Assembly (NCBI GenBank): GCA_964016885.1
Contig: OZ024766.1
Location: 310,001-374,000, forward strand
Direction of reading: 5' to 3'
Origin: Eledone cirrhosa
Lineage: Eukaryota
DNA: 64,000 nt
The notes under the pieces are model-generated. The model had not been told where the DNA came from, made no database searches, and was given only the letters and a program-made list of their open reading frames with translations. Each line of letters opens with the position of its first letter. Within the stretch, counting starts at the first letter, position 1. Positions 3,445 to 47,512 of this stretch are shown here, piece after piece. The position numbers and the translations under genes were made by a program.

Positions 3445-3574
3445 AGTAATTCTTGAAGAATTATTGTAAGTTCAGGATAGATATGACTGTGTAAGACTGA
3501 TGTTGGGGTAAAAAAAAATGGTAGTGTGTCTTTAGTTGTGTTTGTATCTTAACAAATCAGGATTTGTTTACCAT

Positions 3575-11789: not shown

Positions 11790-14700
11790 GATGACGTTTT
11801 AGCCATTTTACTAATTTATGATGCCTTTTGAGGCATTTTAGAGTCATTTTAGTCATTTAAGATGCTGTTTTAGTCCTTTTAGTCACTTATGATAACGTTT
11901 TAATCATTTATGATGACGTTTCAGTCCTTTACGATGACGTTTAAGCCATTTTACTCATTCATGATGCCTTTTTAGCCATTTTAGAGTCATTTTAGTCATT
12001 TATGATGCCATTTTAGTCATTTATGATGACGTTTTAATCATTTATGATGACGTTTTAGTAATTTATGATGACGTTTTAGCGATTTTACTTATTTATGATC
12101 CCTTTTTAGCCATTTTAGAGTCATTTTAGTCATTTATGATGCCATTTTAGTAATTTATGATGACGTTTTAGTAATTTATGATGACGTTTTAGCCATTTTA
12201 CTCATTTATGATGCCGTTTTAGCCATTTTAGTCATTCGTGATGCTGTTTTAGCCATTTTTGTCATTTATGATGACGTTTTAGCCATTTTACTCATTTATG
12301 ATGCCTTTTTAGCCATTTTAGACTCATGTTAGTCATTTATGATGCCGTTTTAGCCATTTCATCCATTTATGATGCTCTTTTAGCCATTTTAGTCATTCAT
12401 GATGACGATTTAGCCAATTTGGAGTCATTCTAGTCATTTATGATGCCGTTTTATCCATTTTAGTCATTTCTAATGACGTTTTAGCTATTTAAGATTCATT
12501 TTATTCATTTATGATGCCGTTTTAGCCATTTTAGTCATTTATAATGACGTTTTAGCTATTTAAGAGTTATTTTAGTGATTTATGATGCCGTTTTATCCAC
12601 TTTTGAGTCATTCTAGTCATTCATGATGCCGTTTTAACAATTTTAGTCATTTATAATGACGTATTAGCAATTTAAGAGTCATTTCAGTCATTTATGATGC
12701 CGTTTTAGCCATTTTGGAGTCATCCTAGTCATTTATGATGCCTTTTAGCCATTTTAGTCATTTATAATGCCGTTTTAGCCATTTTAGAGACATTTTAGTC
12801 ATTTATGATGCTATTTTAGCCATTCTAGACACATTTTAGTCATTTACTCATTTAAGATGCCGTTTTAACCATTATGGAGTCATTTTAGTAATTTATGATG
12901 CCGTTTAGGCCATTTTGGAGTCATTCTAGTCATTTATGATGCCGTTTTATCCATTTCAGTCATTTATAATGAAGTTTTAGCTATTTAAGATTTATTATAA
13001 TCATTTATGATGCCGTTTTAGCCATTTTAGTCATTTATAATGACGTTTTAGCTATTTACGAGTCATTTTAGTCATTTATGATGCCGTTTTAGCCATTTTG
13101 GAGTCATTCTAGTCATTTATGATGCCGTTTTAGGCATTTTGGAGTCATCCTAGTCATTTATGATGCTGTTTTAGCCATTTTAGTCATTCTTAATGACGTT
13201 TTAGCTATTTTAGAGTCATTTGAGTCACTTAAGATGCCGTTTTAACCATTTTGGACACATTTTAGTCATTTATGATGCCGTTTTATCCATTTTCGAGTCA
13301 TTCTAGTCACTTATCATGCCGTTTTAGTCATTTATAATGACGTTTTAGCTATTTAAGAGTCATTTTAGTCATTTATGATGCCGTTTTAGCCATTTTGGAG
13401 TCATTCTAGTCATTTATGATGCCGTTTTAGCCATTTTGGAGTCATCCTAGTCATTTATGATGCCTTTTAGCCATTTTAGTCATTTATAATGACGTTTTAG
13501 CTATTTAAGAGTCATTTTAGTCATTTATGATGCCGTTTTATCCACTTTTGAGGCATTCTAGTCATTTATGATGCCGTTTTAACCATTTTAGTCATTTTTA
13601 ATGACGTATTAGCTATTTAAGAGTCATTTCAGTCATTTATGATGCCGTTTTAGCCATTTTATTCATTTATAATGACGTTTTAGCTATTTAAGAGTCATTT
13701 CAGTCATTTATGATGCCGTTTTAATCATTTATAATGACGTTTTAGCTATTTAAGAGTCATTTCAGTCATTTATGATGCCGTGTTAGCCATTTTAGTCATT
13801 TATTATGCCGTTTTAGCCATTTTAGAGTCATTTTAGTCATTTATGAAGCTATTTCAGCCATTCTAGACACATTTAATCATTCATAATAGCGTTTTACCCA
13901 TTTTACTCATTTATAATGACGTTTTAGCCACTTTAGAGTCATTTTAGTCATTTATGATGCCGTTTTAGCCATTTTGGAGTCATTCTAGTCATTTATGATG
14001 CCGTTTTAGCCATTTTAGTCATTTCTAATGACGTTTTATGTATTTTAGAGACATTTGAGTCATTTAAGATGCCGTTCTAAGCATTTTGGAGTCATTTTAG
14101 TCATTTATGATGCCGTATTAACCATTTGAGTCATTCATAATGACGTTTTAGCTATTTAAGAGTCATTTTAGTCATTTATGATGCCGTTTTAGCTATTTTA
14201 GTCATTTATAATGACATTTTAGCTATTTAAGAGTCATTTTAGTCATTTATGATGCCTTTTTATCCATTTTTGAGTCATTCTAGTCATTTATGATGCCGTT
14301 TTAGCCATTTTAGTCATTTATAATGACGTATTAGCTATTTAAGAGTCATTTCAGTCATTTATGATGCCGTTTTAGCCTTTTTATTCATTTATAATGACGT
14401 TTTAGCTATTTACGAGTCATTTCAGTCATTTATGATGCCGTTTTAATCATTTATAATGACGTTTTAGCTATTTAAGAGTCATTTCAGTCATTTATGATGC
14501 CGTGTTAGCCATTTTAGTCATTTATTATGCCGTTTTAGCCATTTTAGAGTCATTTTAGTCATTTATGAAGCTATTTCAGCCATTCTAGACACATTTAATC
14601 ATTCATAATAGCGTTTTACCCATTTTACTCATTTATAATGACGTTTTAGCCACTCTAGAGTCATTTTAGTCATTTATGATGCCGTTTTAGCCATTTTGGA

Positions 14701-17700
14701 GTCATTCTAGTCATTTATGATGCCGTTTTAGCCATTTTAGTCATTCCTAATGACGTTTTATGTATTTTAGAGACATTTGAGTCATTTAAGAGGCCGTTCT
14801 AAGCATTTTGGAGTCATTTTAGTCATTTATGATGCCGTATTAACCATTTGAGTCATTTATAATGACGTTTTAGCTATTTAAGAGTCATTTTAGTTATTTA
14901 TGATGCCGTTTTAGCCATTTTAGTCATTTATAATGACGTTTTAGCTATTTAAGAGTCATTTTAGTCATTTATGATGCCTTTTTATCCATTTTTGAGTCAT
15001 TCTAGTCATTTATGATGCCGTTTTAACCATTTTAGTCATTTATAATGACGTATTAGCTATTTAAGAGTCATTTCAGTCATTTATGATGCCGTTTTAGCCA
15101 TTTTAGTCATTTATAATGACGTTTTAGCTATTTAAGAGTAATTTTAGTCATTTATGATGCCGTTTTAGCCATTTTAGTCATTTATAATGCTGTTTTAGCC
15201 ATTTTAGAGTCATTTTAGTTATTTATGATGCCGTTTTAGCCATTTTAGTCATTTATAATGACGTTTTAGCTATTTAAGAGTCATTTTAGTTATTTATGAT
15301 GCCGTTTTAGCCATTTTAGTCATTTATAATGACGTTTTAGCTATTTAAGAGTCATTTTAGTCATTTATGATGCCGTTTTAGCCATTTTGGAGTCATTGTA
15401 CTCATTTATGATGCCGTTTTAACCATTTTAGTCATTTATAATGACGTTTTAGCTATTTAAGAGTCATTTCAGTCATTTATGATGCCGTGTTAGCCATTTT
15501 AGTCATTTATAATGCTGTTTTAGCAATTTTAGAGTCATTTTAGTCATTTATGAAGCTATTTCAGCCATTCTAGACACATTTAATCATTCATAATAGCGTT
15601 TTACCCATTTTACTCATTTATAATGACGTTTTAGCCACTATAGAGTCATTTTAGTCATTTATGATGCCGTTTTAGCCATTTTAGAGTCATTTTAGTCATT
15701 TATGATGCCATTTTAGAGTCATTTTAGTCATTTATGATGCCGTTTTAGCCATTTTAGAGTCATTTTAGTCATTTATGATGCCGTTTTAGCCATTTTAGAG
15801 TCATTTTAGTCATTTATGATGCCGTTTTAGCCATTTTAGAGTCATTTTAGTCATTTATGATGCCGTTTTAGCCATTTTACAGTCATTTTAGTCATTTATG
15901 ATGCCGTTTTAGCCATTTTAGAGTCATTTTAGTCATTTATAATGCCGTTTTAGCCATTTTAGAGTCATTTTAGTCATTTATGATGCCGTTTTAGCCATTT
16001 TAGAGTCATTTTAGTCATTTATGATGCCGTTTTAGCCATTTTAGAGTCATTTTAGTCATTTATGATGCCGTTTTAGCCATTTTAGAGTCATTTTAGTCAT
16101 TTATGAAGCTATTTCAGCCATTCTAGACACATTTAATCATTCATAATAGCGTTTTACCCATTTTACTCATTTATAATGACGTTTTAGCCACTTTAGAGTC
16201 ATTTTAGTCATTTATGATGCCGTTTTAGCCATTTTAGAGTCATTTTAGTCATTTATGATGCCGTTTTAGCCATTTTAGAGTCATTTTAGTCATTTATGAT
16301 GCCGTTTTAGCCATTTTAGAGTCATTTTAGTCATTTATGATGCCGTTTTAGCCATTTTAGAGTCATTTTAGTCATTTATGAAGCTATTTCAGCCATTCTA
16401 GACACATTTAATCATTCATAATAGCGTTTTAACCCATTTTACTCATTTATAATGACGTTTTAGCCGCTTTAGAGTCATTTTAGTCATTTATGATGCCGTT
16501 TTAGCCATTTTAGAGTCATTTTAGTCATTTATGATGCCGTTTTAGCCATTTTAGAGTCATTTTAGTCATTTATGATGCCGTTTTAGCCATTTTAGAGTCA
16601 TTTTAGTCATTTATGAAGCTATTTCAGCCATTCTAGACACATTTAATCATTCATAATAGCGTTTTACCCATTTTACTCATTTATAATGACGTTTTAGCCA
16701 CTTTAGAGTCATTTTAGTCATTTATGATGCCGTTTTAGCCATTTTAGAGTCATTTTAGTCATTTATGATGCCGTTTTAGCCATTTTAGAGTCATTTTAGT
16801 CATTTATGATGCCGTTTTAGCCATTTTAGAGTCATTTTAGTCATTTATGAAGCTATTTCAGCCATTCTAGACACATTTAATCATTCATAATAGCGTTTTA
16901 CCCATTTTACTCATTTATAATGACGTTTTAGCCACTTTAGAGTCATTTTACTCATTTATGATGCCGTTTTAGCCATTTTAGAGTCATTTTAGTCATTTAT
17001 GATGCCGTTTTAGCCATTTTAGAGTCATTTTAGTCATTTATGATGCCGTTTTAGCCATTTTAGAGTCATTTTAGTCATTTATGATGCCGTTTTAGCCATT
17101 TTAGAGTCATTTTAGTCATTTATGATGCCGTTTTAGCCATTTTAGAGTCATTTTAGTCATTTATGATGCCGTTTTAGCCATTTTAGAGTCATTTTAGTCA
17201 TTTATGATGCCGTTTTAGCCATTTTAGAGTCATTTTAGTCATTTATGATGCCGTTTTAGCCATTTTAGGGTCATTTTAGTCATTTATGATGCCGTTTTAG
17301 CCATTTTAGAGTCATTTTAGTCATTTATGATGCCGTTTTAGCCATTTTAGAGTCATTTTAGTCATTTATGATGCCGTTTTAGCCATTTTAGAGTCATTTT
17401 AGTCATTTATGAAGCTATTTCAGCCATTCTAGACACATTTAATCATTCATAATAGCGTTTTACCCATTTTACTCATTTATAATGACGTTTTAGCCACTTT
17501 AGAGTCATTTTAGTCATTTATGATGCCGTTTTAGCCATTTTAGAGTCATTTTAGTCATTTATGATGCCGTTTTAGCCATTTTAGAGTCATTTTAGTCATT
17601 TATGATGCCGTTTTAGCCATTTTAGAGTCATTTTAGTCATTTATGATGCCGTTTTAGCCATTTTAGAGTCATTTTAGTCATTTATGAAGCTATTTCAGCC

Positions 17701-20700
17701 ATTCTAGACACATTTAATCATTCATAATAGCGTTTTACCCATTTTACTCATTTATAATGACGTTTTAGCCACTTTAGAGTCATTTTAGTCATTTATGATG
17801 CCGTTTTAGCCATTTTAGAGTCATTTTAGTCATTTATGATGCCGTTTTAGCCACTTTAGAGTCATTTTAGTCATTTATGATGCCGTTTTAGCGATTTTAG
17901 AGTCATTTTAGTCATTTATGATGCCGTTTTAGCCATTTTAGAGTCATTTTAGTCATTTATGATGCCGTTTTAGCCATTTTAGAGTTATTTTAGTCATTTA
18001 TGATGCCGTTTTAGCCATTTTAGAGTCATTTTAGTCATTTATGATGCCGTTTTAGCCATTTTAGAGTCATTTTAGTCATTTATGATGCCGTTTTAGCCAT
18101 TTTAGAGTCATTTTAGTCATTTGTGATGCCGTTTTAGCCATTTTAGAGTCATTTTAGTCATTTATGATGCCGTTTTAGCCATTTTAGAGTCATTTTAGTC
18201 ATTTATGATGCCGTTTTAGCCATTTTAGAGTCATTTTAGTCATTTATGATGCCGTTTTAGCCATTTTAGAGTCATTTTAGTCATTTATGATGCCGTTTTA
18301 GCCATTTTAGAGTCATTTTAGTCATTTATGATGCCGTTTTAGCCATTTTAGAGTCATTTTAGTCATTTATGAAGCTATTTCAGCCATTCTAGACACATTT
18401 AATCATTCATAATAGCGTTTTACCCATTTTACTCATTTATAATGACGTTTTAGCCACTTTAGAGTCATTTTAGTCATTTATGATGCCGTTTTAGCCATTT
18501 TAGAGTCATTTTAGTCATTTATGATGCCGTTTTAGCCATTTTAGAGTCATTTTAGTCATTTATGATGCCGTTTTAGCCATTTTAGAGTCATTTTAGTCAT
18601 TTATGATGCCGTTTTAGCCATTTTAGAGTCATTTTAGTCATTTATGATGCCGTTTTAGCCATTTTAGAGTCATTTTAGTCATTTATGATGCCGTTTTAGC
18701 CATTTTAGAGTCATTTTAGTCATTTATGAAGCTATTTCAGCCATTCTAGACACATTTAATCATTCATAATAGCGTTTTACCCATTTTACTCATTTATAAT
18801 GACGTTTTAGCCACTTTAGAGTCATTTTAGTCATTTATGATGCCGTTTTAGCCATTTTAGAGTCATTTTAGTCATTTATGATGCCGTTTTAGCCATTTTA
18901 GAGTCATTTTAGTCATTTATGATGCCGTTTTAGCCATTTTAGAGTCATTTTAGTCATTTATGATGCCGTTTTAGCCATTTTAGAGTCATTTTAGTCATTT
19001 ATGAAGCTATTTCAGCCATTCTAGACACATTTAATCATTCATAATAGCGTTTTACCCATTTTACTCATTTATAATGACGTTTTAGCCACTTTAGAGTCAT
19101 TTTAGTCATTTATGATGCCGTTTTAGCCATTTTAGAGTCATTTTAGTCATTTATGATGCCGTTTTAGCCATTTTAGAGTCATTTTAGTCATTTATGATGC
19201 CGTTTTAGCCATTTTAGAGTCATTTTAGTCATTTATGAAGCTATTTCAGCCATTCTAGACACATTTAATCATTCATAATAGCGTTTTACCCATTTTACTC
19301 ATTTATAATGACGTTTTAGCCACTTTAGAGTCATTTTCGTCATTTATGATGCCGTTTTAGCCATTTTAGAGTCATTTTAGTCATTTATGATGCCGTTTTA
19401 GCCATTTTAGAGTCATTTTAGTCATTTATGATGCCGTTTTAGCCATTTTAGAGTCATTTTAGTCATTTATGAAGCTATTTCAGCCATTCTAGACACATTT
19501 AATCATTCATAATAGCGTTTTACCCATTTTACTCATTTATAATGACGTTTTAGCCACTTTAGAGTCATTTTACTCATTTATGATGCCGTTTTAGCCATTT
19601 TAGAGTCATTTTAGTCATTTATGATGCCGTTTTAGCCATTTTAGAGTCATTTTAGTCATTTATGATGCCGTTTTAGCCATTTTAGAGTCATTTTAGTCAT
19701 TTATGATGCCATTTTAGAGTCATTTTAGTCATTTATGATGCCGTTTTAGCCATTTTAGAGTCATTTTAGTCATTTATGATGCCGTTTTAGCCATTTTAGA
19801 GTCATTTTAGTCATTTATGATGCCGTTTTAGCCATTTTAGAGTCATTTTAGTCATTTATGAAGCTATTTCAGCCATTGTAGACACATTTAATCATTCATA
19901 ATAGCGTTTTACCCATTTTACTCATTTATAATGACGTTTTAGCCACTTTAGAGTCATTTTAGTCATTTATGATGCCGTTTTAGCCATTTTAGAGTCATTT
20001 TAGTCACTTATGATGCCGTTTTAGCCATTTTAGAGTCATTTTAGTCATTTATGATGCCGTTTTAGCCACTTTAGAGTCATTTTAGTCATTTATGATGCCG
20101 TTTTAGCGATTTTAGAGTCATTTTAGTCATTTATGATGCCGTTTTAGCCATTTTAGAGTCATTTTAGTCATTTATGATGCCGTTTTAGCCATTTTAGAGT
20201 CATTTTAGTCATTTATGATGCCGTTTTAGCCATTTTAGAGTCATTTTAGTCATTTATGATGCCGTTTTAGCCATTTTAGAGTCATTTTAGTCATTTATGA
20301 TGCCGTTTTAGCCATTTTAGAGTCATTTTAGTCATTTATGATGCCGTTTTAGCCATTTTAGAGTCATTTTAGTCATTTATGATGCCGTTTTAGCCATTTT
20401 AGAGTCATTTTAGTCATTTATGATGCCGTTTTAGAGTCATTTTAGTCATTTATGATGCCGTTTTAGCCATTTTAGAGTCATTTTAGTCATTTATGATGCC
20501 GTTTAAGCCATTTTAGAGTCATTTTAGTCATTTATGATGCCGTTTTAGCCATTTTAGAGTCATTTTAGTCATTTATGATGCCGTTTTAGCCATTTTAGAG
20601 TCATTTTAGTCATTTATGATGCCGTTTTAGCCATTTTAGAGTCATTTTAGTCATTTATGAAGCTATTTCAGCCATTCTAGACACATTTAATCATTCATAA

Positions 20701-23700
20701 TAGCGTTTTACCCATTTTACTCATTTATAATGACGTTTTAGCCCCTTTAGAGTCATTTTCGTCATTTATGATGCCGTTTTAGCCATTTTAGAGTCATTTT
20801 AGTCATTTATGATGCCGTTTTAGCCATTTTAGAGTCATTTTAGTCATTTATGATGCCGTTTTAGCCATTTTAGAGTCATTTTAGTCATTTATGATGCCGT
20901 TTTAGCCATTTTAGAGTCATTTTAGTCATTTATGAAGCTATTTCAGCCATTGTAGACACATTTAATCATTCATAATAGCGTTTTACCCATTTTACTCATT
21001 TATAATGACGTTTTAGCCACTTTAGAGTCATTTTAGTCATTTATGATGCCGTTTTAGCCATTTTAGAGTCATTTTAGTCACTTATGATGCCGTTTTAGCC
21101 ATTTTAGAGTCATTTTAGTCATTTATGATGCCGTTTTAAGCCACTTTAGAGTCATTTTAGTCATTTATGATGCCGTTTTAGCGATTTTAGAGTCATTTTA
21201 GTCATTCATGATGCCGTTTTAGCCATTTTAGAGTCATTTTAGTCATTTATGATGCCGTTTTAGCCATTTTAGAGTCATTTTAGTCATTTATGATGCCGTT
21301 TTAGCCATTTTAGAGTCATTTTAGTCATTTATGATGCCGTTTCTAGCCATTTTAGAGTCATTTTAGTCATTTATGATGCCGTTTTAGCCATTTTAGAGTC
21401 ATTTTAGTCATTTATGATGCCGTTTTAGCCATTTTAGAGTCATTTTAGTCATTTATGATGCCGTTTTAGCCATTTTAGAGTCATTTTAGTCATTTATGAT
21501 GCCGTTTTAGCCATTTTAGAGTCATTTTAGTCATTTATGATGCCGTTTTAGCCATTTTAGAGTCATTTTAGTCATTTATGATGCCGTTTTAGCCATTTTA
21601 GAGTCATTTTAGTCATTTATGATGCCGTTTTAGCAATTTTAGAGTCATTTTAGTCATTTATGATGCCGTTTTAGCCATTTTAGAGTCATTTTAGTCATTT
21701 ATGATGCCGTTTTAGCCATTTTAGAGTCATTTTAGTCATTTATGAAGCTATTTCAGCCATTCTAGACACATTTAATCATTCATAATAGCGTTTTTACCCA
21801 TTTTACTCATTTATAATGACGTTTGCCACTTTAGAGTCATTTTAGTCATTTATGATGCCGTTTAGCCATTTTAGAGTCATTTTAGTCATTCATGATGCCG
21901 TTTTAGCCATTTTAGAGTCATTTTAGTCATTTATGATGCCGTTTTAGCCATTTTAGAGTCATTTTAGTCATTTATGATGCCGTTTTAGCCATTTTAGAGT
22001 CATTTTAGTCATTTATGATGCCGTTTTAGCCATTTTAGAGTCATTTTAGTCATTTATGATGCCGTTTTAGCCATTTTAGAGTCATTTTAGTCATTTATGA
22101 AGCTATTCAGCCATTCTAGACACATTTAATCATTCATAATAGCGTTTTACCCATTTTACTCATTTATAATGACGTTTTAGCCACTTTAGAGTCATTTTAG
22201 TCATTTATGATGCCGTTTTAGCCATTTTAGAGTCATTTTAGTCATTTATGATGCCGTTTTAGCCATTTTAGAGTCATTTTAGTCATTTATGATGCCGTTT
22301 TAGCCATTTTAGCGTCATTTTAGTCATTTATGATGCCGTTTTAGCCATTTTAGAGTCATTTTAGTCATTTATGATGCCGTTTTAGCCATTTTAGAGTCAT
22401 TTTAGTCATTTATGAAGCTATTTCAGCCATTCTAGACACATTTAATCATTCATAATAGCGTTTTACCCATTTTACTCATTTATAATGACGTTTTAGCCAC
22501 TTTAGAGTCATTTTAGTCATTTATGATGCCGTTTTAGCCATTTTAGAGTCATTTTAGCCATTTATGATGCCGTTTTAGCCATTTTAGAGTCATTTTAGTC
22601 ATTTATGATGCCGTTTTAGCCATTTTAGAGTCATTTTAGTCATTTATGATGCCGTTTTAGCCATTTTAGAGTCATTTTAGTCATTTATGATGCCGTTTTA
22701 GCCATTTTAGAGTCATTTTAGTCATTTATGATGCCGTTTTAGCCATTTTAGAGTCATTTTAGTCATTTATGATGCCGTTTTAGCCATTTTAGAGTCATTT
22801 TAGTCATTTATGATGCCGTTTTAGCCATTTTAGAGTCATTTTAGTCATTTATGATGCCGTTTTAGCCATTTTAGAGTCATTTTAGTCATTTATGATGCCG
22901 TTTTAGCCATTTTAGAGTCATTTTAGTCATTTATGATGCCGTTTTAGCCATTTTAGAGTCATTTTAGTCATTTATGATGCCGTTTTAGCCATTTTAGAGT
23001 CATTTTAGTCATTTATGAAGCTATTTCAGCCATTTTAGACACATTTAATCATTCATAATAGCGTTTTACCCATTTTACTCATTTATAATGACGTTTTAGC
23101 CACTTTAGAGTCATTTTAGTCATTTATGATGCCGTTTTAGCCATTTTAGAGTCATTTTAGTCATTTATGATGCCGTTTTAGCCATTTTAGAGTCATTTTA
23201 GTCATTTATGATGCCGCTTTAGCCATTTTAGAGTCATTTTAGTCATTTATGATGCCGTTTTAGCCATTTTAGAGTCATTTTAGTCATTTATGATGCCGTT
23301 TTAGCCATTTTAGAGTCATTTTAGTCATTTATGATGCCGTTTTAGCCATTTTAGAGTCATTTTAGTCATTTATGATGCCGTTTTAGCCATTTTAGAGTCA
23401 TTTTAGTCATTTATGATGCCGTTTTAGCCATTTTAGAGTCATTTTAGTCATTTATGATGCCGTTTTAGCCATTTTAGAGTCATTTTAGTCATTTATGATG
23501 CCGTTTTAGCATTTTAGAGTCATTTTAGTCATTTATGAAGCTATTTCAGCCATTCTAGACACATTTAATCATTCATAATAGCGTTTTACCCATTTTACTC
23601 ATTTATAATGACGTTTTAGCCACTTTAGAGTCATTTTAGTCATTTATGATGCCGTTTTAGCCATTTTAGAGTCATTTTAGTCATTTATGATGCCGTTTTA

Positions 23701-26700
23701 GCCATTTTAGAGTCATTTTAGTCATTTATGATGCCGTTTTAGCCATTTTAGAGTCATTTTAGTCATTTATGATGCCGTTTTAGCCATTTTAGAGTCATTT
23801 TAGTCATTTATGAAGCTATTTCAGCCATTCTAGACACATTTAATCATTCATAATAGCGTTTTACCCATTTTACTCATTTATAATGACGTTTTAGCCACTT
23901 TAGAGTCATTTTAGTCATTCATGATGCCGTTTTAGCCATTTTAGAGTCATTTTAGTCATTTATGATGCCATTTTAGCCATTTTAGAGTCATTTTAGTCAT
24001 TTATGATGCCGTTTTAGCCATTTTAGAGTCATTTAGTCATTTATGATGCCGTTTTAGCCATTTTAGAGTCATTTTAGTCATTTATGATGCCGTTTTAGCC
24101 ATTTTAGAGTCATTTTAGTCATTTATGATGCCGTTTTAGCCATTTTAGAGTCATTTTAGTCATTTATGATGCCGTTTTAGCCATTTTAGAGTCATTTTAG
24201 TCATTTATGAAGCTATTTCAGCCATTCTAGACACATTTAATCATTCATAATAGCGTTTTACCCATTTTACTCATTTATAATGACGTTTTAGCCACTTTAG
24301 AGTCATTTTAGTCATTTATGATGCCGTTTTAGCCATTTTAGAGTCATTTTAGTCATTTATGATGCCATTTTAGCCATTTTAGAGTCATTTAGTCATTCAT
24401 GATGCCGTTTTAGCCATTTTAGAGTCATTTTAGTCATTTATGATGCCGTTTTAGCCATTTTAGAGTCATTTTAGTCATTTATGATGCCGTTTTAGCCATT
24501 TTAGAGTCATTTTAGTCATTTATGATGCCGTTTTAGCCATTTTAGAGTCATTTTAGTCATTTATGATGCCGTTTTAGCATTTTAGAGTCATTTTAGTCAT
24601 TTATGATGCCGTTTTAGCCATTTTAGAGTCATTTTAGTCATTTATGAAGCTATTTCAGCCATTCTAGACACATTTAATCATTCATAATAGCGTTTTACCC
24701 ATTTTACTCATTTATAATGACGTTTTAGCCACTTTAGAGTCATTTTAGTCATTTATGATGCCGTTTTAGCCATTTTAGAGTCATTTTAGTCATTTATGAT
24801 GCCGTTTTAGCAATTTTAGAGTCATTTTAGTCATTTATGATGCCGTTTTAGCCATTTTAGAGTCATTTTAGTCATTTATGATGCCGTTTTAGCCATTTTA
24901 GAGTCATTTAGTCATTTATGATGCCGTTTTAGCCATTTTAGAGTCATTTTAGTCATTTATGAAGCTATTTCAGCCATTCTAGACACATTTAATCATTCAT
25001 AATAGCGTTTTACCCATTTTACTCATTTATAATGACATTTTAGCCACTTTAGAGTCATTTTAGTCATTTATGATGCCGTTTTAGCCATTTTAGAGTCATT
25101 TTAGTCATTTATGATGCCGTTTTAGCCATTTTAGAGTCATTTTAGTCATTTATGATGCCGTTTTAGCCATTTTAGAGTCATTTTAGTCATTTATGATGCC
25201 GTTTTAGCCATTTTAGAGTCATTTTAGTCATTTATGATGCCGTTTTAGCCATTTTAGAGTCATTTTAGTCATTTATGATGCCGTTTTAGCCATTTTAGGG
25301 TCATTTTAGTCATTTATGATGCCGTTTTAGCCATTTTAGAGTCATGTTAGTCATTTATGATGCCGTTTTAGCCATTTTAGAGTCATTTTAGTCATTTATG
25401 ATGCCGTTTTAGCCATTTTAGAGTCATTTTAGTCATTTATGAAGCTATTTCAGCCATTCTAGACACATTTAATCATTCATAATAGCGTTTACCCATTTTA
25501 CTCATTTATAATGACGTTTTAGCCACTTTAGAGTCATTTTAGTCATTTATGATGCCGTTTTAGCCATTTTAGAGTCATTTTAGTCATTTATGATGCCGTT
25601 ATAGCCATTTTAGAGTCATTTTAGTCATTTATGATGCCGTTTTAGCCATTTTAGAGTCATTTTAGTCATTTACGATGCCGTTTTAGCCATTTTAGAGTCA
25701 TTTTAGTCATTTATGATGCCGTTTTAGCCATTTTAGAGTCATTTTAGTCATTTATGATGCCGTTTTAGCCATTTTAGAGTCATTTTAGTCATTTATGAAG
25801 CTATTTCAGCCATTCTAGACACATTTAATCATTCATAATAGCGTTTTACCCATTTTACTCATTTATAATGACGTTTTAGCCACTTTAGAGTCATTTTAGT
25901 CATTTATGATGCCGTTTTAGCCATTTTAGAGTCATTTTAGTCATTTATGATGCGTTTTAGCCATTTTAGAGTCATTTTAGTCATTTATGATGCCGTTTTA
26001 GCCATTTTAGAGTCATTTTAGTCATTTATGATGCCGTTTTAGCCATTTTAGAGTCATTTTAGTCATTTATGATGCCGTTTTAGCTATTTTAGAGTCATTT
26101 TAGTCATTTATGATGCCGTTTTAGCCATTTTAGAGTCATTTTAGTCATTTATGAAGCTATTTCAGCCATTCTAGACACATTTAATCATTCATAATAGCGT
26201 TTTACCCATTTTACTCATTTATAATGACGTTTTAGCCACTTTAGAGTCATTTTAGTCATTTATGATGCCGTTTTAGCCATTTTAGAGTCATTTTAGTCAT
26301 TTATGATGCCATTTTAGCCATTTTAGAGTCATTTTAGTCATTTATGATGCCGTTTTAGCCATTTTAGAGTCATTTTAGTCATTTATGATGCCGTTTTAGC
26401 CATTTTAGAGTCATTTTAGTCATTTATGATGCCATTTTAGCCATTTTAGAGTCATTTTAGTCATTTATGATGCCGTTTTAGCCATTTTAGAGTCATTTTA
26501 GTCATTTATGATGCCGTTTTAGCCATTTTAGAGTCATTTTAGTCATTTATGATGCCGTTTTAGCCATTTTAGAGTCATTTTAGTCATTTATGAAGCTATT
26601 TCAGCCATTCTAGACACATTTAATCATTCATAATAGCGTTTTACCCATTTTACTCATTTATAATGACGTTTTAGCCACTTTAGAGTCATTTTAGTCATTT

Positions 26701-29700
26701 ATGATGCCGTTTTAGCCATTTTAGAGTCATTTTAGTCATTTATGATGCCGTTTTAGCCATTTTAGAGTCATTTTAGTTATTTATGATGCCGTTTTAGCCA
26801 TTTTAGAGTCATTTTAGTCATTTATGATGCCGTTTTAGCCATTTTAGAGTCATTTTAGTCATTTATGATGCCGTTTTAGCCATTTTAGAGTCATTTTAGT
26901 CATTTATGATGCCGTTTTAGCCATTTTAGAGTCATTTTAGTCATTTATGATGCCGTTTTAGCCATTTTAGAGTCATTTTAGTCATTTATGATGCCGTTTT
27001 AGCCATTTTAGAGTCATTTTAGTCATTTATGAAGCTATTTCAGCCATTCTAGACACATTTAATCATTCATAATAGCGTTTTACCCATTTTACTCATTTAT
27101 AATGACGTTTTAGCCACTTTAGAGTCATTTTAGTCATTTATGATGCCGTTTTAGCCATTTTAGAGTCATTTTAGTCATTTATGATGCCGTTTTAGCCATT
27201 TTAGAGTCATTTAGTCATTTATGATGCGTTTTAGCCATTTTAGAGTCATTTTAGTCATTTATGATGCCGTTTTAGCCATTTTAGAGTCATTTTAGTCATT
27301 TACGATGCCGTTTTAGCCATTTTAGAGTCATTTTAGTCATTTATGATGCCGTTTTAGCCATTTTAGAGTCATTTTAGTCATTTATGATGCCGTTTTAGCC
27401 ATTTTAGAGTCATTTTAGTCATTTATGAAGCTATTTCAGCCATTCTAGACACATTTAATCATTCATAATAGCGTTTTACCCATTTTACTCATTTATAATG
27501 ACGTTTTAGCCACTTTAGAGTCATTTTAGTCATTTATGATGCCGTTTTAGCCATTTTAGAGTCATTTTAGTCATTTATGATGCCGTTTTAGCCATTTTAG
27601 AGTCATTTTAGTCATTTATGATGCCGTTTTAGCCATTTTAGAGTCATTTTAGTCATTTATGATGCCGTTTTAGCCATTTTAGAGTCATTTTAGTCATTTA
27701 TGATGCCGTTTTAGCCATTTTAGAGTCATTTTAGTCATTTATGAAGCTATTTCAGCCATTCTAGACACATTTAATCATTCATAATAGCGTTTTACCCATT
27801 TTACTCATTTATAATGACGTTTTAGCCACTTTAGAGTCATTTTAGTCATTTATGATGCCGTTTTAGCCATTTTAGAGTCATTTTAGTCATTTATGATGCC
27901 ATTTTAGCCATTTTAGAGTCATTTTAGTCATTTATGATGCCGTTTTAGCCATTTTAGACTCATTTAGTCATTTATGATGCCGTTTTAGCCATTTTAGAGT
28001 CATTTTAGTCATTTATGATGCTATTTTAGCCATTTTAGAGTCATTTTAGTCATTTATGATGCCGTTTTAGCCATTTTAGAGTCATTTTAGTCATTTATGA
28101 TGCCGTTTTAGCCATTTTAGAGTCATTTTAGTCATTTATGATGCCGTTTTAGCCATTTTAGAGTCATTTTAGTCATTTATGAAGCTATTTCAGCCATTCT
28201 AGACACATTTAATCATTCATAATAGCGTTTTACCCATTTTACTCATTTATAATGACGTTTTAGCCACTTTAGAGTCATTTTAGTCATTTATGATGCCGTT
28301 TTAGCCATTTTAGAGTCATTTTAGTCATTTATGATGCCGTTTTAGCAATTTTAGAGTCATTTTAGTCATTTATGATGCCGTTTTAGCCATTTTAGAGTCA
28401 TTTTAGTCATTTATGATGCCGTTTTAGCCATTTTAGAGTCATTTTAGTCATTTATGATGCCGTTTTAGCCATTTTAGAGTCATTTTAGTCATTTATGAAG
28501 CTATTTCAGCCATTCTAGACACATTTAATCATTCATAATAGCGTTTTACCCATTTTACTCATTTATAATGACGTTTTAGCCACTTTAGAGTCATTTTAGT
28601 CATTTATGATGCCGTTTTAGCCATTTTAGAGTCATTTTAGTCATTTATGATGCCGTTTTAGCCATTTTAGAGTCATTTTAGTCATTTATGATGCCGTTTT
28701 AGCCATTTTAGAGTCATTTTAGTCATTTATGATGCCGTTTTAGCCATTTTAGAGTCATTTTAGTCATTTATGAAGCTATTTCAGCCATTCTAGACACATT
28801 TAATCATTCATAATAGCGTTTTACCCATTTTACTCATTTATAATGACGTTTTAGCCACTTTAGAGTCATTTTAGTCATTTATGATGCCGTTTTAGCCATT
28901 TTAGAGTCATTTTAGTCATTTATGATGCCGTTTTAGCAATTTAGAGTCATTTTAGTCATTTATGATGCCGTTTTAGCCATTTTAGAGTCATTTTAGTCAT
29001 TTATGATGCCGTTTTAGCCATTTTAGAGTCATTTTAGTCATTTATGATGCCGTTTTAGCCATTTTAGAGTCATTTTAGTCATTTATGAAGCTATTTCAGC
29101 CATTCTAGACACATTTAATCATTCATAATAGCGTTTTACCCATTTATAATGACGTTTTAGCCACTTTGGAGTCATTTTAGTCATTTATGATGCCGTTTTA
29201 GCCATTTTAGAGTCATTTTAGTCATTTATGATGCCGTTTTAGCAATTTTAGAGTCATCTTAGTCATTTATGATGCCGTTTTAGCCATTTTAGAGTCATTT
29301 TAGTCATTTATGATGCCGTTTTAGCTATTTTAGAGTCATTTTAGTCATTTATGATGCCGTTTTAGCCATTTAGAGTCATTTTAGTCATTTATGAAGCTAT
29401 TTCAGCCATTCTAGACACATTTAATCATTCATAATAGCGTTTTACCCATTTTACTCATTTATAATGACGTTTTAGCCACTTTAGAGTCATTTTAGTCATT
29501 TATGATGCCGTTTTAGCCATTTTAGTGTCATTTTAGTCATTCATGATGCCGTTTTAGCAATTTTAGAGTCATTTTAGTCATTTATGATGCCGTTTTAGCC
29601 ATTTTAGAGTCATTTTAGTCATTTATGATGCCGTTTTAGCCATTTTAGAGTCATTTTAGTCATTTATGATGCCGTTTTAGCCATTTTAGAGTCATTTTAG

Positions 29701-31323
29701 TCATTTATGAAGCTATTTCAGCCATTCTAGACACATTTAATCATTCATAATAGCGTTTTACCCATTTTACTCATTTATAATGACGTTTTAGCCACTTTAG
29801 AGTCATTTTAGTCATTTATGATGCCGTTTTAGCCATTTTAGAGTCATTTTAGTCATTTATGATGCCGTTTTAGCAATTTTAGAGTCATTTTAGTCATTTA
29901 TGATGCGGTTTTAGCCATTTTAGAGTCATTTTAGTCATTTATGATGCCGTTTTAGCCATTTTAGAGTCATTTTAGTCATTTATGATGCCGTTTTAGCCAT
30001 TTTAGAGTCATTTTAGTCATTTATGAAGCTATTTCAGCCATTCTAGACACATTTAATCATTCATAATAGCGTTTTACCCATTTTACTCATTTATGATGCC
30101 GTTTTAGCCACTTTAGAGTCATTTTAGTCATTTATGATGCCGTTTTAGCCATTTTAGAGTCATTTTAGTCATTTATGATGCCGTTTTAGCCATTTTGGAG
30201 TCATTCTAGTCATTTATGATGCCGATTTAGCCATTTTAGTCATTCCTAATGACGTTTTATGTATTTTAGAGACATTTGAGTCATTTAAGAGGCCGTTCTA
30301 AGCATTTTGGAGTCATTTTAGTCATTTATGATGCCGTATTAACCATTTCAGTCATTCATAATGACGTTTTAGCTATTTAAGAGTAATTTTAGTTATTTAA
30401 GATGCCGTTTTAGCCATTTATAATGACGTTTTAGCTATTTAAGAGTCATTTTAGTCATTTATGATGCCTTTTTATCCATTTTTGAGTCATTCTAGTCATA
30501 TATGATGCCGTTTTAGCCATTTGAGTGATTTATAATGACGTATTAGCTATTTAAGAGTCATTTCAGTCATTTATGATGCCGTTTTAGCCATTTTATTCAT
30601 TTATAATGACGTTTTAGCTATTTAAGAGTCATTTCAGTCATTTATGATGCCGTTTTAATCATTTATAATGACGTTTTAGCTATTTAAGAGTCATTTCAGT
30701 CATTTATGATGCCGTGTTAGCCATTTTAGTCATTTATTATGCCGTTTTAGCCATTTTAGAGTCATTTTAGTCATTTATGAAGCTATTTCAGCCATTCTAG
30801 ACACATTTATTCATTCATAATAGCGTTTTACCCATTTTACTCATTTATAATGACGTTTTAGCCACTCTAGAGTCATTTTGGTCATTTATGATGCCGTTTT
30901 AGCCATTTGGGAGTCATTCTAGTCATTTATGATGCCGTTTTAGCCATTTTAGTCATTCCTAATGACGTTTTATGTATTTTAGAGACATTTGAGTCATTTA
31001 AGAGGCCGTTCTAAGCATTTTGGAGTCATTTTAGTCATTTATGATGCCGTATTAACCATATGAGTCATTTATAATGACGTTTTAGCTATTTAAGAGTCAT
31101 TTCAGTCATTTATGATGCCGTTTTAATCATTTATAATGACGTTTTAGCTATTTAAGAGTCATTTCAGTCATTTATGATGCCGTTTTAATCATTTATAATG
31201 ACGTTTTAGCTATTTAAGAGTCATTTTAGTCATTTATGTTGCCTTTTTATCCATTTTTGAGTCATTATAGTCATTTATGATGCCGTTTTAGCCATTTTAG
31301 CCATTTATAATGACGTTTTAGCT
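11790..31323 (+). repeat. Satellite array, forward arm (41-bp monomer GATGCCGTTTTAGCCATTTTAGAGTCATTTTAGTCATTTAT plus 21/30-bp variants)
   Basis: Period 41 read directly (e.g. 16021 to 16062). Flanks are diverged and the core at about 15540-30200 is homogeneous. Confidence 0.98.
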
Positions 31324-34300
31324 ACTAAAATGAGTAAATGACTCTAAAATGGCTAAAACGACATTATAAATGACTAAAATAGCTAAAACGGCATCATAAA
31401 TGACTGGAATGACTCCAAAATGGCTAAAACGGCATCATAAATGACTAAAATGACGCTAAAACGTCATTATAAATGACTAAAATGGCTAAAACGGCATCAT
31501 AAATGACTAGAATGACTCCAAAATGGATAAAACGGCATCATAAATGACAAAAATGACTCTTAAATAGCTAAAACGTCATTATAAATTACTAAAACGGCAT
31601 CATAAATGACTAAAATGACTCTAAAATAGCTAAAACGTCATTATAAATGACTAAAATGGCTAAAACGGCATCATAAATGACTAGAATGACTCCAAAATGG
31701 ATAAAACGGCATCATAAATGACAAAAATGACTCTTAAATAGCTAAAACGTCATTATAAATTACTAAAACGGCATCGTAAATGACTAAAATAACTCTTAAA
31801 TAGCTAAAACGTCATTATAAATGACTCAAATGGTTAAAACGGCATCTTAAATGACTAAAATGACTCCAAAATGCTTAGAACGGCCTCTTAAATGTCTCAA
31901 ATGTCTCTAAAATAGATAAAACGTCATTAGGAATGACTAAAATGGCTAAAACAGCATCATAAATGACTAGAATGACTCCAAAATGGCTAAAACGGCATCA
32001 TAAATGCCTAAATTGACTCTAAAGTGGCTAAAACGTCATTATAAATGAGTAAAATGGGTTAACCGGCATTATCAATTACTAAGATGTGTCTAGAATGGCT
32101 GAAATAGCTTCATAAATGACTAAAATGACTTTAAAATGGCTAAAACGGCATTATAAATGACTAAAATGGCTAAAAGGGCATCATAAATAACTAAAATAAC
32201 TCTTAAATAGCTAAAAGATCATTATAACTGACTAAAATGGCTAAAACGGCATCATAAGGGACTAGAATCACTCCAAAATGGCTAAAACGGCATCATAAAG
32301 GACTAGAATCACTCCAAAATGGCTAAAACGGCATCATAAATGACTAAAATGACTCTTAAATAGCTAAAATGTTTATTATAAATGACTAAAATGGCTAAAA
32401 CGGCATCATAAATGACTGAAATGACTCTTAAATAGCTAAAACGTCATTATGAATGACTAAAATGGCTAAAACGGCATCATAAATGACTAGAATGACTCCA
32501 GAATGGCTAAAACGGCACCATAAATGACTCAAATGACTCTTAAATAGCTAAAACGTCATTATATATGACTAAAATGGCTAAAACGGCATCATAAATGATT
32601 AAAATGAATCTTAAATAGCTAAAACGTCATTATAAACGACTAGAATGGATAAAACGGCATCATAAATGACTGAAATGACTCTTAAATAGCTAATACGTCA
32701 TTATAAATCACTCAAATGGCTAAAACGGCATCATAAATGACTAGAATTACTCCAAAATGGATAAAACGGCATCATAAATGATTAAAATGACTCTTAAATA
32801 GCTAAAACGTCATTATAAATGGCTAAAACGGCATCATAAATAACTAAAATTACTCTTAAATAGCTAAAACGTCATTATGAATGACTCAAATGATTAATAC
32901 GGCATCATAAATGACTAAAATGACTCCAAAATGCTTAGAACGGCCTCTTAAATGACTCAAATGTCTCTAAAATACATAAAACGTCATTAGGAATGACTAA
33001 AATGGCTAAATCGGCATCATAAATGACTAGAATGACTCCAAAATGGCTAAAACGGCATCATAAATGACTAAAATGACTCTAGAGTGGCTAAAACGTCATT
33101 ATAAATGAGTAAAATGGGTAAAACGCTATTATGAATTATTAAATGTGTCTAGAATGGCTGAAATAGCTTCATAAATGACTAAAATGACTCTAAAATGGCT
33201 AAAACGGCATAATAAATGACTAAAATGGCTAACACGGCATCATAAATGACTGAAATGACTCTTAAATAGCTAAAACGTCATTATTAATGACTAAAATAAC
33301 TCCAAAATGCTTAGAACGGCCTCTTAAATGACTCAAATGTCTTTAAAATACATAAAACGTCATTATAAATGACTAAAATGGCTAAAACGGCATCATAAAT
33401 GACTAGAATGACTCCAGAATGGATAAAACGGCATCATAAATGACTAAAATGACTCTTAAGTGGCTAAAACGTCATTATAAATGAGTAAAATAGGTAAAAC
33501 GGCATCATAAATGACTAAAATGTGTCTAGAATGGCTGAAATAGCATCATAAATGACTAAAATGATTCTAAAATGGCTAAAACGGCATTATGAATGACTAG
33601 AATGGCTAAAACGGCATCATAAATGACTCCAAAGTGGGTAAAACGGCATCATAAATGACTTAAATGATTCCAAAATGGTTGAAACGGCATCTTAAATGAC
33701 TCAAATGTCTCTAAAATAGCTAAAACGTCATTGGAAATGACTAAAATGGCAAAAACGGCATCATAAATGACTAGAATGATTCCAAAATGGCTAAAACGGC
33801 ATCATAAATGACTAAAATGACTCTTAAATAGCTAAAACGTCATTATGAATGACTACAATGGGTAAAACGGCAGCATAAATGATTAAAATGACTCTTAAAT
33901 AGCTAAAACGTCATTATTAATGACTAAAATGACTAAAACGGCATCATAAATGACTAGATTAACTCCAAAATGGCTAAAACGGCATCATGAATGACTAAAA
34001 TGACTCTTAAATAGCTAAAACGTCATTATAAATGACTAAAATTGCTAAAACGGCATGATAAATGACTAAAATGACTCTAAAATAGCTAAAACATCACTAG
34101 AAATGACTAAAATGGCTAAAACGGCATCATAAATGACTAGAATGACTCAAAAATGTCTAAAACGGCATCATATATGACTAGAATGACTCCAAAATGGATA
34201 AAACGGCATCATAAATGACTAAAATATCTCTTAAATAGCTAAAACGTCATTATAAATGACTAAAAGGGCTAAAACTGCATTATATATGACTAGAATGACT

Positions 34301-37300
34301 CCAAAATGTCTAAAAGGCATCATGAATGACTAAAATGACTCCAAAAATGTTAAAACGGCATCTTAAATGACTCAAATGACTCTAAAATAGCTAAAATGTC
34401 ATTAGGCATGACTAAAATGTCTAAAACGGCATCATAAACCACTAGAATGACTCCAAAATGGCTAAAACGGTATCATAAATGACTAAAATGACTCTAAAAT
34501 AGCTAAAACGACATTATAAATAACTAAAATGGCTAAAACGGCATCATAAATGACTAGAATGATTCCAAAATGTCGAAAACGGCATCATAAATAATTAAAA
34601 TAACTCCAAAATGGTTAAAACGGCATCTTAAATGACTCAAAAGCCTCTAAAATAGTTAAAACGTCATTAGGAATGACTAAGACGGCTAAAACGTCATCAT
34701 AAATTACTAGAATGACTCCAATGTGGCTAAAACGGCATCATAAATGACTAAAATGTCTCCATAATGGTTAAAACGGCATCATTAATGATTAAAATGAATC
34801 TAAAATAGCTAAAACTTCATTATAAATGACTAAAATGGCTAAAACGGCATCATAAATGACTAAAATGACTCTAAAATAGCTAAAACGACATTATAAATAT
34901 ACTAAATTGGCTAAAACGGCATCATAAATGACTAGAATGATTCCAAAATGTCGAAAACGGCATCATAAATAACTAGAATGACTCCAAAACGGCTAAATCG
35001 GCATCATAAATGAGTAACATGACTCTTAAATAGCTAAAACATCACTATAAAAGACTAAAATGGCTAAAACGGCATCATAAATGACTGAAATGACTCTTAA
35101 ACAGCTAAAATGTCATTATAAATGACTAAAAGGGCTAAAACAGTATCATAAACCACTAGAATGACTCCAAAATGGCTAAAACGGTATCATAAATGACTAA
35201 AATGTCTCTTAAATAGCTAAAACGTCATTATAAATGACTAAAATGGCTAAAACAGCATCATAAATGATTAAAATGACTCTTAAATAGCTAAAACGTCATT
35301 ATTAATGACTAAAATGGCTAAAACGGCATCATAAATGACTAGAATGACTCCAAAATGTCTAAAACGGCATCATAAATGACAACAATGACTCCAAAAAGGT
35401 TAAAACGGCATCTTAAATGACTGAAATGACTCTAAAATAGCTAAAACGTCATTAGGCATGACTAAAACGGTATCATAAACGACTAGAATGACTCCAAAAT
35501 GGCTAAAACGGCATCATAAATGACTAAACTGACTCCATAATGGTTAAAACGGCATCAGAAATGACTAAAATAATTCTTAAATAGCTAAAACGTCATTATA
35601 AATTACTAAAAGGGCTAAAACGGCATTATAATTTACTAGAATGACTCCAAAATGGCTAAAACAGCATCATAAATGACTAAAATGACTCTTAAATAGCTAA
35701 AACGTCATTATAAATGACTACAATGGGTAAAACGGCAGCATAAATGATTAAAATGACTCTTAAATAGCTAAAACGTCATTATTAATTACTAAAATGACTA
35801 AAACGGCATCATAAATGACTAGATTAACTCCAAAATGGCTAAAACGGCATCATGAATGACTAAAATGACTCATAAATAGCTAACACGTCATTATAAATGA
35901 CTAAAATTGCTAAAACTGCATGATAAATGACTAAAATGACTCTAAAATAGCTAAAACATCACTAGAAATGACTAAAATGGCTAAAACGGCATCATAAATG
36001 ACTAGAATGACTCAAAAATGTCTAAAACGGCATCATGTATGACTAGAATGACTCCAAAATGGATAAAACGGCATGATAAATGACTAAAATGTCTCTTAAA
36101 TAGCTAAAACGTCATTATAAATGACTAAAAGGGCTAAAACTGCATTATATATGACTAGAATGACTCCAAAATGTCTAAAACGGGATCATGAATGACTAAA
36201 ATGACTCCAAAAATGTTAAAACGGCATCTTAAATGACTCAAATGACTCTAAAATAGCTAAAATGTCATTAGGCATGACTAAAATGTCTAAAACGGCATCA
36301 TAAACCACTAGAATGACTCCAAAATGGCTAAAACGGTATCATAAATGACTAAAATGACTCTAAAATAGCTAAAACGACATTATAAATATACTAAAATGGC
36401 TAAAACGGCATCATAAATGACTAGAATGATTCCAAAATGTCGAAAACGGCATCATGAATAACTAGAATGACTCCAAAACGGCTAAATCGGCATCATAAAT
36501 GAGTAAAATGACTCTTAAATAGCTAAAACATCACTATAAAAGACTAAAATGGCTAAAACGGCATCATAAATGACTGAAATGACTCTTAAACAGCTAAAAT
36601 GTCATTATAAATGACTAAAATGGCTAAAACAGTATCATAAACCACTAGAATGACTCCAAAATGGCTAAAACGGTATCATAAATGACTGAAATGACTCTTA
36701 AATAGCTAAAACGTCATTATAAATGACTAAAACGGCATGATAAGTGACTAGAATGACTCCAAAATGGATAAAACGGCATCATAAATGACTAAAATGTGTC
36801 CAAAATGGTTAAAACGGCATCTTAAGTGACTCAAATGACTCTAAAATAGCTAAAACGTCATTAAGAATGACTAAAATGGCTAAAACAGCATCATAAATGA
36901 CTAAATCGGCTAAAACGGCAACATAAATGACTACAGTGACTCTTAAATAGCTAAAAAGTCATTTTAAATGATCAAAATGGCTAAAACGGCATCATAAATG
37001 ACTAGAATGACTCAAAAATGTCTAAAACGGGATCATAAATGACTAAAATGACTCCAAAAATGTTAAAACGGCATCTTAAATAACTCAAATGACTCTAAAA
37101 TAGCTAAAACGTCATTATAAATGACTAAAATGCCTAAAACGCCATCATAAATGACTAGAGTGACTCCAAAATGGCTAAAACGTCATTATAAATGAGTAAA
37201 ATGGGTAAAACGGCATTATGAATGACTAAAATGACTCTAAAATGGCTAAAACGGCATTATGAATGACTAAAACGGCATCATAAATGACTCCAAAATGGCT

Positions 37301-38730
37301 AAAACGGCATCATAAATGACCGAAATGACTCTTAAATAGCTAAAACGTCATTATAAATGACTAAAATGGCTAAAACTGCATCATAAATGACTAGAATGAC
37401 TCCAAAATGGATAAAACGGCATCATAAATGACTAAAATGACTCTTAAATAGCTAAAACGTCATTATAAATGACTAAAACGGCATTATAAATGACTCAATT
37501 GACTCTAAAATAGCTAAAACGTCATTATAAATGACTCTTAAATAGCTAAAACGGCATCATAAATGACTAAAATGACTCCAAAATGGTTAAAACAGCATCT
37601 TAAATGACTCAAATAACTCTAAAATAGCTAAAACATCATTACGAATGACTAAAACGGCATCATAAATGACTAGAATGACTCCAAAATGACTAAAACGGCA
37701 TCATAAATGACTAAAATGACTCCAAAGGGGTTAAAACGGCATCTTAAATGACTCAAAAGACTCTAAAATAGCTAAAACGTCATTAGGAATGACTAAAATG
37801 GCTAAAACGGCATCATAAATGACAAGAATGACTCCAAAATGGCTAAAACGGCATCATAAATGACTAGAATGACTCCAAAATGGCTAAAACGGCATCATAA
37901 ATGACTAGAATGATTCCAAAATGTCTAAAACGGCATCATAAATGACTAAAATGACTCCAAAAGGGCTAAAACGGCATCTTAAATGACTCAAAAGACTCTA
38001 AAATAGCTAAAACGTCATTAGGAATGACTAAAACGGCATCATAAATGACAAGAATGACTCCAAAATGGCTAAAACGGCATCATAAATTACTAAAATGACT
38101 CCATAATGGTTAAAACGGCATCTTAAATGACTAAAATGACTCTAAAGTGGTTAAAACGTCATTATAAATGACTAAAATGGGTAAAACGGCATTATGAATG
38201 ACTAAAATGTGTCTAGAATGGCTAAAATAGCATCATAAATGACTAAAATGACTCTAAAATGGCTAAAACGGCATTATCAATTACTAAAACGGCATCATAA
38301 ATGACTAAAATGACTCTCAAATAGCTAATACGTCATCATAAATGACTAAAATGGCTAAATCAGCATCATGAATGAGTAAAATGGCCAAAACCTCATAATA
38401 AATTACTAAAACGTCATAATAAATGACAAAAATGGCTCTAAACGCATATCGAATGACTAAAATGGCATCATAAATGAGTAAAAAGGGATCATAAATAAGT
38501 AAAATCGCTAAAACGTCATCAGAAATGACTAAAACGTCATCATAAATGATTAAAATGTCATCATAAAGGACTAAAACGGCATCATAAATGACTCTAAAAT
38601 GGCTAAAAGGGCATCATGAATGAGTAAAATGGCTAAAACGTCATCATAAATGACTAAAACTTCATAATAAATGACGAAAACGTCATAAGTGACTAAAACA
38701 GCATCATAAATGACATCATAAATGAGTAGA
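31324..38730 (-). repeat. Satellite array, inverted arm (diverged 41/30/21-bp units)
   Basis: Sequence switches to ATAAATGACTAAAATGGCTAAAACGGCATC after TTTTAG-CTA-CTAAAA. Confidence 0.98.
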
Positions 38731-38734
38731 ATAT

Positions 38735-39262: not shown

Positions 39263-39284
39263 AATTTATGATTGCTTTGGTGTT

Positions 39285-47510: not shown

Positions 47511-47512
47511 AG

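Follow-up and report, generated by a model that had tools for sequence, protein, structure and literature searches.

Satellite macro-dyads of flour beetles are the closest described systems. They have been reported in Tribolium freemani (TfSat01/TfSat03; bioRxiv 10.1101/2024.12.02.626372) and T. madens (TmSat1/TmSat2; PMC13081366), and the cited sections of the latter paper, of 2026, describe satellite macro-dyads as documented in Tribolium only. As far as those sections go, the likeness to the arrays analyzed here lies in multi-kb arrays of two inverted subarrays with unequal arms, in joins without spacer (TfSat01), in shorter one-directional arrays and in an interleaved second satellite. In contrast, the same sections give few types of inversion site, conserved at 95-99.9%, and place the beetle dyads in putative centromeric megabase blocks, whereas 23/23 dispersed centres differ here and the arrays of Eledone stand singly among genes. 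Since the inversion sites in Tribolium are conserved, polarity is inherited there along with the site.

Foldback (FB) elements of Drosophila have long modular inverted repeats, with 10/20/31-bp subunits that expand inward. Foldback/Mutator elements (Drosophila FB, Tetris, Tm1, Rehavkus) resemble our arrays in their long unequal inverted arms, variable number of short modules, fixed polarity and lack of coding capacity, and unequal arms, modular subunits and fixed polarity are what the cited sections report for Foldback-type elements (PMC3169594, PMC4079207). They differ, on the same partial accounts, in that our arrays are without terminal motif, flanking or middle domain, 8-10 bp duplication and linked transposase. 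Inward telomere fusions and fold-back inversions offer another likeness, since in the cited part of PMC10762111 one strand of the repeat is joined head-to-head with microhomology and the choice of the strand whose 3′ end is extended sets the polarity. Our repeat is, by comparison, non-telomeric, interstitial, kilobase-scale and germline-fixed, and enzyme and template are putative. Twin priming of LINEs can also yield inverted joins; of the marks of such an insertion (3′ tail, target-site duplication, sense transcript), the first two were looked for in the arrays and not found. In the main texts covered, a coverage that is incomplete, the literature held no description of the family or of a polarity combined with independent joins; the main text of the octopus repeat paper PMC13282606 does not contain the word 'satellite'.

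Architecture of the 27-kb array

The window, that is the whole stretch of 64,000 nt of Eledone cirrhosa DNA that was analyzed, contains no N. It holds a 27-kb satellite array (G000:C27 0.32 Mb, 0.32 Mb from the contig end), in which three orientation blocks were mapped: + 11790-31324, − 31325-38728 and + 38737-39273. The features are listed below.

11790..31324, + strand: left arm, 19,535 bp; the T-rich strand is the top strand; 9-, 11- and 12-bp modules combine into 21-, 30- and 41-bp units
11790..12400, + strand: old outer layer of the left arm, with many 21/30-bp units
12400..15400 (approximate boundaries), + strand: intermediate layers of the left arm, with counterparts mirrored in the right arm
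15400..30200 (approximate boundaries), + strand: young left-arm core of nearly pure 41-mers, without mirror copy
30200..31324, + strand: inner copy of the intermediate layer in the left arm; 30200-30560 equals 32690-33060 at 339/347
31322..31328, no strand: convergent centre, spacer absent, overlap of about 2 bp; sequence found at no other locus
31325..38728, − strand: right arm, 7.4 kb; the T-rich strand is the bottom strand
38729..38736, no strand: divergent join, a few bases outside monomer sequence
38737..39273, + strand: short peripheral block of about 540 bp, in left-arm orientation, of the old 21/30-rich type
2215-3471, 7703-8881, 41758-42963, 51262-52119, 57440-58669 and 63279-64000, − strand: C2H2 zinc-finger ORFs, single exon

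An earlier note on this DNA had described a giant foldback with mirror-image arms at 11790..38730. The arms are indeed inverted, but the true end lies at 39273, a third + block having been overlooked. Because this block closes the array, the outermost ends are direct and not inverted. It is 81-86% identical to its best matches and carries no recent duplication. The idea that it mirrors the adjoining arm was ruled out here; it is partly true at locus C18b. When the pattern of the divergent join at 38729..38736 was searched genome-wide, that single match was returned. Inward lengthening of the units, also described earlier, is seen in the outer 600 bp of this array (mean unit length 29 on the left and 32 on the right, 34-41 inward) but not beyond 600 bp; as a family-wide rule it was rejected, being present in only a minority of other arms.

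The mirror relation between the arms is genuine in places. The four left/right pairs noted earlier were all recovered in reverse complement, with 36/36, 41/43, 189/190 and 339/347 identities. The 36-mer at 12067 recurs solely at 38485 (33 family loci compared), and the outermost 400 bp of the two arms are mutual best matches among 19 and 49 windows and have 18 rare 18-mers in common. The layer at 11790..12400 aligns collinearly with the outer end of the right arm at about 89%, with 11809 pairing with 38728, and the intermediate left-arm layers contain the 189/190 tract (13155-13345 vs 36710-36900). The mirror-image layering that had been proposed is, however, a patchwork. Identity to the left arm is ≥98% for 3/25 right-arm windows and 87-94% for 22/25, and the best match of a window lies in its own left arm in 13/25, at another locus in 11/25 and in a tie in 1/25. 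The left arm has a stretch of some 15 kb (about 15400-30200) that lacks a counterpart in the right arm; this core holds exact internal duplications of up to 590 bp, and the right arm carries a private internal duplication of 1866 bp (34319 vs 36185). Mirror collinearity, measured by rank correlation, was not significant at any of 13 loci, the 27-kb array included. Outer ends pair clearly in 2/18 loci, this array and C23, and at 12/18 loci arm-to-arm sharing of 24-mers exceeds sharing with any other locus. The tracts at 98-99% are likely recent arm-to-arm conversions.

The inversion at 31324/31325 is real. The centre is crossed in run X1 by a 101-nt contig (depth 4.9) that spans 31279-31379 with zero differences and reaches 46 and 55 bases either side; in X2, X4 and X5 no contig bridges the centre among the matches listed (24 of 2112 pieces). 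A foldback artefact of assembly or library, about which the earlier note had been concerned, is exceedingly improbable, because a short-read-type contig crosses the join without mismatch, the arms have diverged (87-94% identity, each with private duplications) and the structure recurs across the family. There is also no reason for artefacts to be polar. What could be said for an artefact is that three other centres sit in 200-N scaffold gaps and that X1 may derive from the assembly's own sample.

The array is flanked on both sides by C2H2 zinc-finger ORFs, each of a single exon and each on the − strand. A LINE at 47382-49997 of the window encodes a reverse transcriptase and a PHD finger in three open frames. 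Other tandem arrays of the window are found at 61516-62825, 55677-56046, 63148-63316 and 261-610, with units of 72 bp (18 copies at 96%), 60/61 bp and 72 bp.

Polarity, joins and age layers across the family

A DNA search, together with four exact patterns matched on both strands, located the loci in the 3.0-Gb genome; for one pattern they were taken from 100 of 478 matches, and the census is not exhaustive. This search method cannot favour either polarity. The loci examined contain at least 646 kb of the satellite, which is AT-rich; its large arrays lie on contigs C15-C27 and on two small scaffolds. The control satellites are each essentially single-locus and therefore uninformative. Among the loci examined, 22/28 runs ≥8 kb have both orientations, as two inverted multi-kb subarrays without spacer. 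In 21/22 of these the + arm stands before the − arm, so that the T-rich strand points inward (P 1.1e-5), and 18/19 are inward when the three loci with 200-N gap centres are left out. The remaining 6/28 runs have a single orientation, each being interrupted by a gap or by the end of the retrieved sequence. Joins with both neighbours ≥2 kb comprise 21 convergent and 2 divergent ones, and both of the latter are internal to serial dyads. Resolved outer ends (n = 49) point inward in 34 cases and outward in 15, and 13/15 outward ends are blocks <1.4 kb. Small isolated pieces of the satellite are mostly of one orientation, and complex loci can be resolved into convergent dyads, nested or in series. 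The polarity of the large array at C24e is reversed if a second satellite is left out of account, and C20c, C25 and C25c have large divergent joins between the two satellites. T-runs ≥4 number 57 per kb on one strand and 0 on the other. About 25 dispersed dyads follow a strand rule, with the T-rich strand nearly always inward. The random orientation switches that the earlier note had considered were not found; the switches are strongly polar.

This common polarity goes with different centres. All sequenced centres differ (23/23; best 32/40 matches, a spanning 20-mer common to none), even among closely related loci, and they have little or no spacer. Conservation of the inversion site between loci, as in Tribolium, is absent except in the amplified C18 domain and C24d. 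An overlap ≥4 bp was measured at 15/33 convergent joins, compared with 16% of simulated blunt joins, and at 7/22 divergent joins; the measure is approximate, and some joins are local duplicates. Arrays start at an arbitrary monomer phase. Comparison of array ends and flanks across loci gave no shared terminal sequence or flanking domain, and flanks have nothing in common but other satellites and dispersed repeats of ordinary kinds. Among the 29 flanks compared, unique flank was never seen as an inverted copy, and the flanks of the 27-kb array are not inverted copies of one another. Target-site duplications were not found at 23 loci: the longest flank match was 5-7 bp in 20 of them and 8, 12 and 17 bp in three, where it is satellite motif. 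At C4 (G000:C4:78.708-78.741 Mb) a tandem unit has three copies with a 1.56-kb satellite block and also a block-free form. This empty site is clean, the block having been acquired without duplication. No poly(A) tail marks the array ends. Targeting of TA/CA microsatellites was rejected, with 6/51 inward ends against 741/3812 (19%) in the background. A twin-priming geometry, in which the outer end of one arm would be continuous with the inner end of the other, gave no consistent signal in the 24 joins listed.

The share of recurrent 40-mers places the youngest sequence in mid-arm (medians over 14 loci: mid-arm 0.72, centre 0.29, outer end 0.17). Therefore continued growth at the join is not supported, and the centre was rejected as the ongoing site of growth (0.29 vs 0.72). 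Since recent duplication peaks mid-arm, each arm can be read as a layered satellite of the ordinary kind, bounded by the join. Peripheral blocks at divergent joins are frozen in 6/7 cases (recurrence ≤0.06). Arms of different subfamilies meet at C18b and C6, and layer order is not conserved between loci. Copying between loci is common: the C13 left arm has 71% of its 24-mers in common with C20c, the C4 block matches C27b at 97%, and C24g and C26a have a common satellite boundary at 96%.

Explanations for the fixed polarity

What is observed is the architecture, the fixed polarity, the distinct spacer-less centres, the lack of termini and of target-site duplications, the young mid-arm and the frozen short outer blocks. 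Because a palindrome is symmetric, joins that are independent and yet of fixed polarity require that the process itself be strand-biased or that polarity be inherited while the centres turn over. The polarity pattern suggests strand-biased repair rather than a transposon. Our preferred reading, to which we assign a probability of roughly 45%, is that a dyad would arise when templated repair of a DNA break lengthens the broken 3′ ends in one sense only, that of the T-rich strand, likely because it is the A-rich strand that is at hand in single-stranded form. A small seed array, or the sequence next to it, would be broken, one 3′ end or both would prime on an A-rich template, and several kb would be copied. 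The candidate template is a satellite transcript copied by LINE reverse transcriptase or, alternatively, a DNA strand displaced by the satellite transcript; enzyme and template are both putative. As T-rich ends are unable to anneal mutually, joining would proceed via microhomology of 0-7 bp or a short insertion. What is left of the seed would persist at the outer end, a short block of 'wrong' orientation, and the arms would grow mid-arm by ordinary unequal exchange or slippage and trade tracts by gene conversion.

Runs of four or more T terminate transcription by RNA polymerase III, and hybrids of rU with dA are weak, so that A-rich RNA is the expected species; given the T-run asymmetry of the family, products of polymerase III and stable RNA-DNA hybrids would be limited to RNA of the A-rich sense. 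LINEs with reverse transcriptase ORFs occur in the window and at other array loci. As given in the cited sections, the strand whose 3′ end is extended sets inward versus outward joins of telomeric repeats (PMC10762111), inverted templated insertions at breaks are documented (PMC11724301), and octopus has retrotransposition-competent LINEs (bioRxiv 2021.01.24.427974). At the level of sequence, the polarity (21/22), the independent joins (23/23) and the overlap excess (15/33 vs 16%) suggest such repair, as do the lack of an inverted unique flank (29 flanks), the duplication-free gain at C4 and the nested or serial build of complex loci, among them C26b and C24c with a related 71/143-bp satellite in mirrored position. 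The arms of different subfamilies at C18b and C6 count for it because self-foldback alone cannot yield them. Against repair weigh the lack of a poly(A) tail, of a target-site duplication and of microsatellite enrichment at the ends; the mid-arm youth (0.72 vs 0.29) and the pairing of outer ends in 2/18 loci; and the reversed C24e, the divergent joins of C20c, C25 and C25c and the 15/49 outward ends. A bias through G-T wobble, with the T-rich strand folding better, was rejected, since the A-rich strand is stabler in 363/560 windows and the T-rich strand in 157/560. A telomere-like version, in which LINE reverse transcriptase would lengthen the two 3′ ends of a chromosome break with A-rich satellite RNA as template, is unlikely. 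If this version were true, each event would leave an inward-pointing dyad, and nested or serial multi-satellite dyads would record repeated events.

The main rival of strand-biased repair is a polarity inherited from a founder. One convergent dyad would have arisen by accident, centre-spanning fragments would have seeded other loci, for example by extrachromosomal circles as put forward for Tribolium, and microhomology deletions would have remodelled the centres while polarity was kept. The common copying between loci (C13/C20c, C4/C27b, C24g/C26a), the C18 domain, which amplifies a conserved centre as a unit, and the conserved centres in the cited accounts of Tribolium dyads all agree with this history. 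We nevertheless regard it as rather unlikely, because 23/23 dispersed centres differ, close relatives included, arms can be of different subfamilies, and the frozen outer blocks suggest that both join types were seeded and that only the convergent pair grew. Another rival is a replication filter, whereby foldback or inversion in situ would be unbiased and arrays would expand or persist only where entering forks copy the T-rich strand in their own direction of travel, so that convergent arms grow and divergent blocks remain small. Repeat instability can depend on orientation, the wrong-way outer blocks are small and frozen, growth is located mid-arm, and 0/6 single-orientation runs ≥8 kb have both ends resolved; foldback at local microhomology is documented in the cited part of PMC11724301. 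But arrays of 10-40 kb would often be replicated by a single fork, which predicts large arrays of single orientation or arbitrary polarity, and unique flank is duplicated in none of 29 flanks; such a filter is distinctly unlikely.

A transposon, which the earlier note had offered as a hypertrophied Foldback element, would here be a decayed one of Foldback/Mutator type, its modular inverted arms hypertrophied and its ends lost. Long modular inverted arms are present, MULE genes occur in the genome, fixed polarity, unequal arms and modular subunits match such elements, and Foldback elements are known to seed satellites, as far as the cited sections describe (PMC3169594, PMC4079207; bioRxiv 10.1101/2024.12.02.626372). 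The array is not a Foldback element, because conserved termini, target-site duplication, shared centre and linked transposase are all lacking: target-site duplication and shared centre at 23 loci each, and a transposase in the 75 ORFs scanned (71/115 locus ORFs and 4 window ORFs), so that the earlier observation of neither target-site duplication nor transposase was borne out on this wider scale. The genome-wide search for transposase covered the MULE family, three array centres being gaps, and gave 12 matches, of which 0/12 have the satellite within 5 kb. The short elements with paired ends, target-site duplications and a Mutator transposase that this origin leads one to look for were not seen either, since in copies of 0.5-2.2 kb termini, flanking domain, duplication and centre are equally unconserved. 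With the clean C4 empty site and an order of layers that varies between loci, a transposon origin is very unlikely. The other origin proposed earlier, an inverted duplication of a layered satellite, fits this locus; the array polarity across the genome is poorly predicted by either.

Associated satellites and significance

A related 71/143-bp satellite has short motifs in common with the family (G000:C26:1822479-1858511, C24:8503702-8532453, C25:17965001-18009930 and others). At C26b and C24c it borders the arms on their outer side in mirrored order; it also builds dyads of its own and extends over >42 kb. At G000:C18:41881610-41885863, twelve short blocks, 68-774 bp long, alternate at the edge of a large array and in part recur as units. 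At G000:C18:42.686-42.695 Mb a 41-bp satellite of different sequence continues straight into a + arm of the family; 23/24 pattern matches to this 41-bp satellite lie there. At C24a (G000:C24:3549511) a 3′ tail that we take to be SINE-like runs straight into a satellite block of the same sense, and at C18b (C18:42667966) a short 3′ end, presumably LINE-like, adjoins the right arm. Read-through or template switching could have produced these junctions as chimeras, or they could be due to chance.

Within the genome, only the domain at C18:42.69-43.37 Mb, sampled in 8 stretches and an edge, looks Tribolium-like. Over about 680 kb, dyads of a GC-rich 30-bp satellite with a conserved centre alternate with short pieces or dyads of the family of the 27-kb array. 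As it is very like the centromeric macro-dyads of Tribolium, we infer that this domain is a candidate centromere.

Macro-dyads are now found in an animal distant from Tribolium, with joins that are independent and yet a polarity that is fixed. A satellite macro-dyad with a strand rule may be the first such pattern outside flour beetles. The combination of independent joins and fixed polarity separates two explanations, and it bears on how satellite arrays seed loci and switch orientation.
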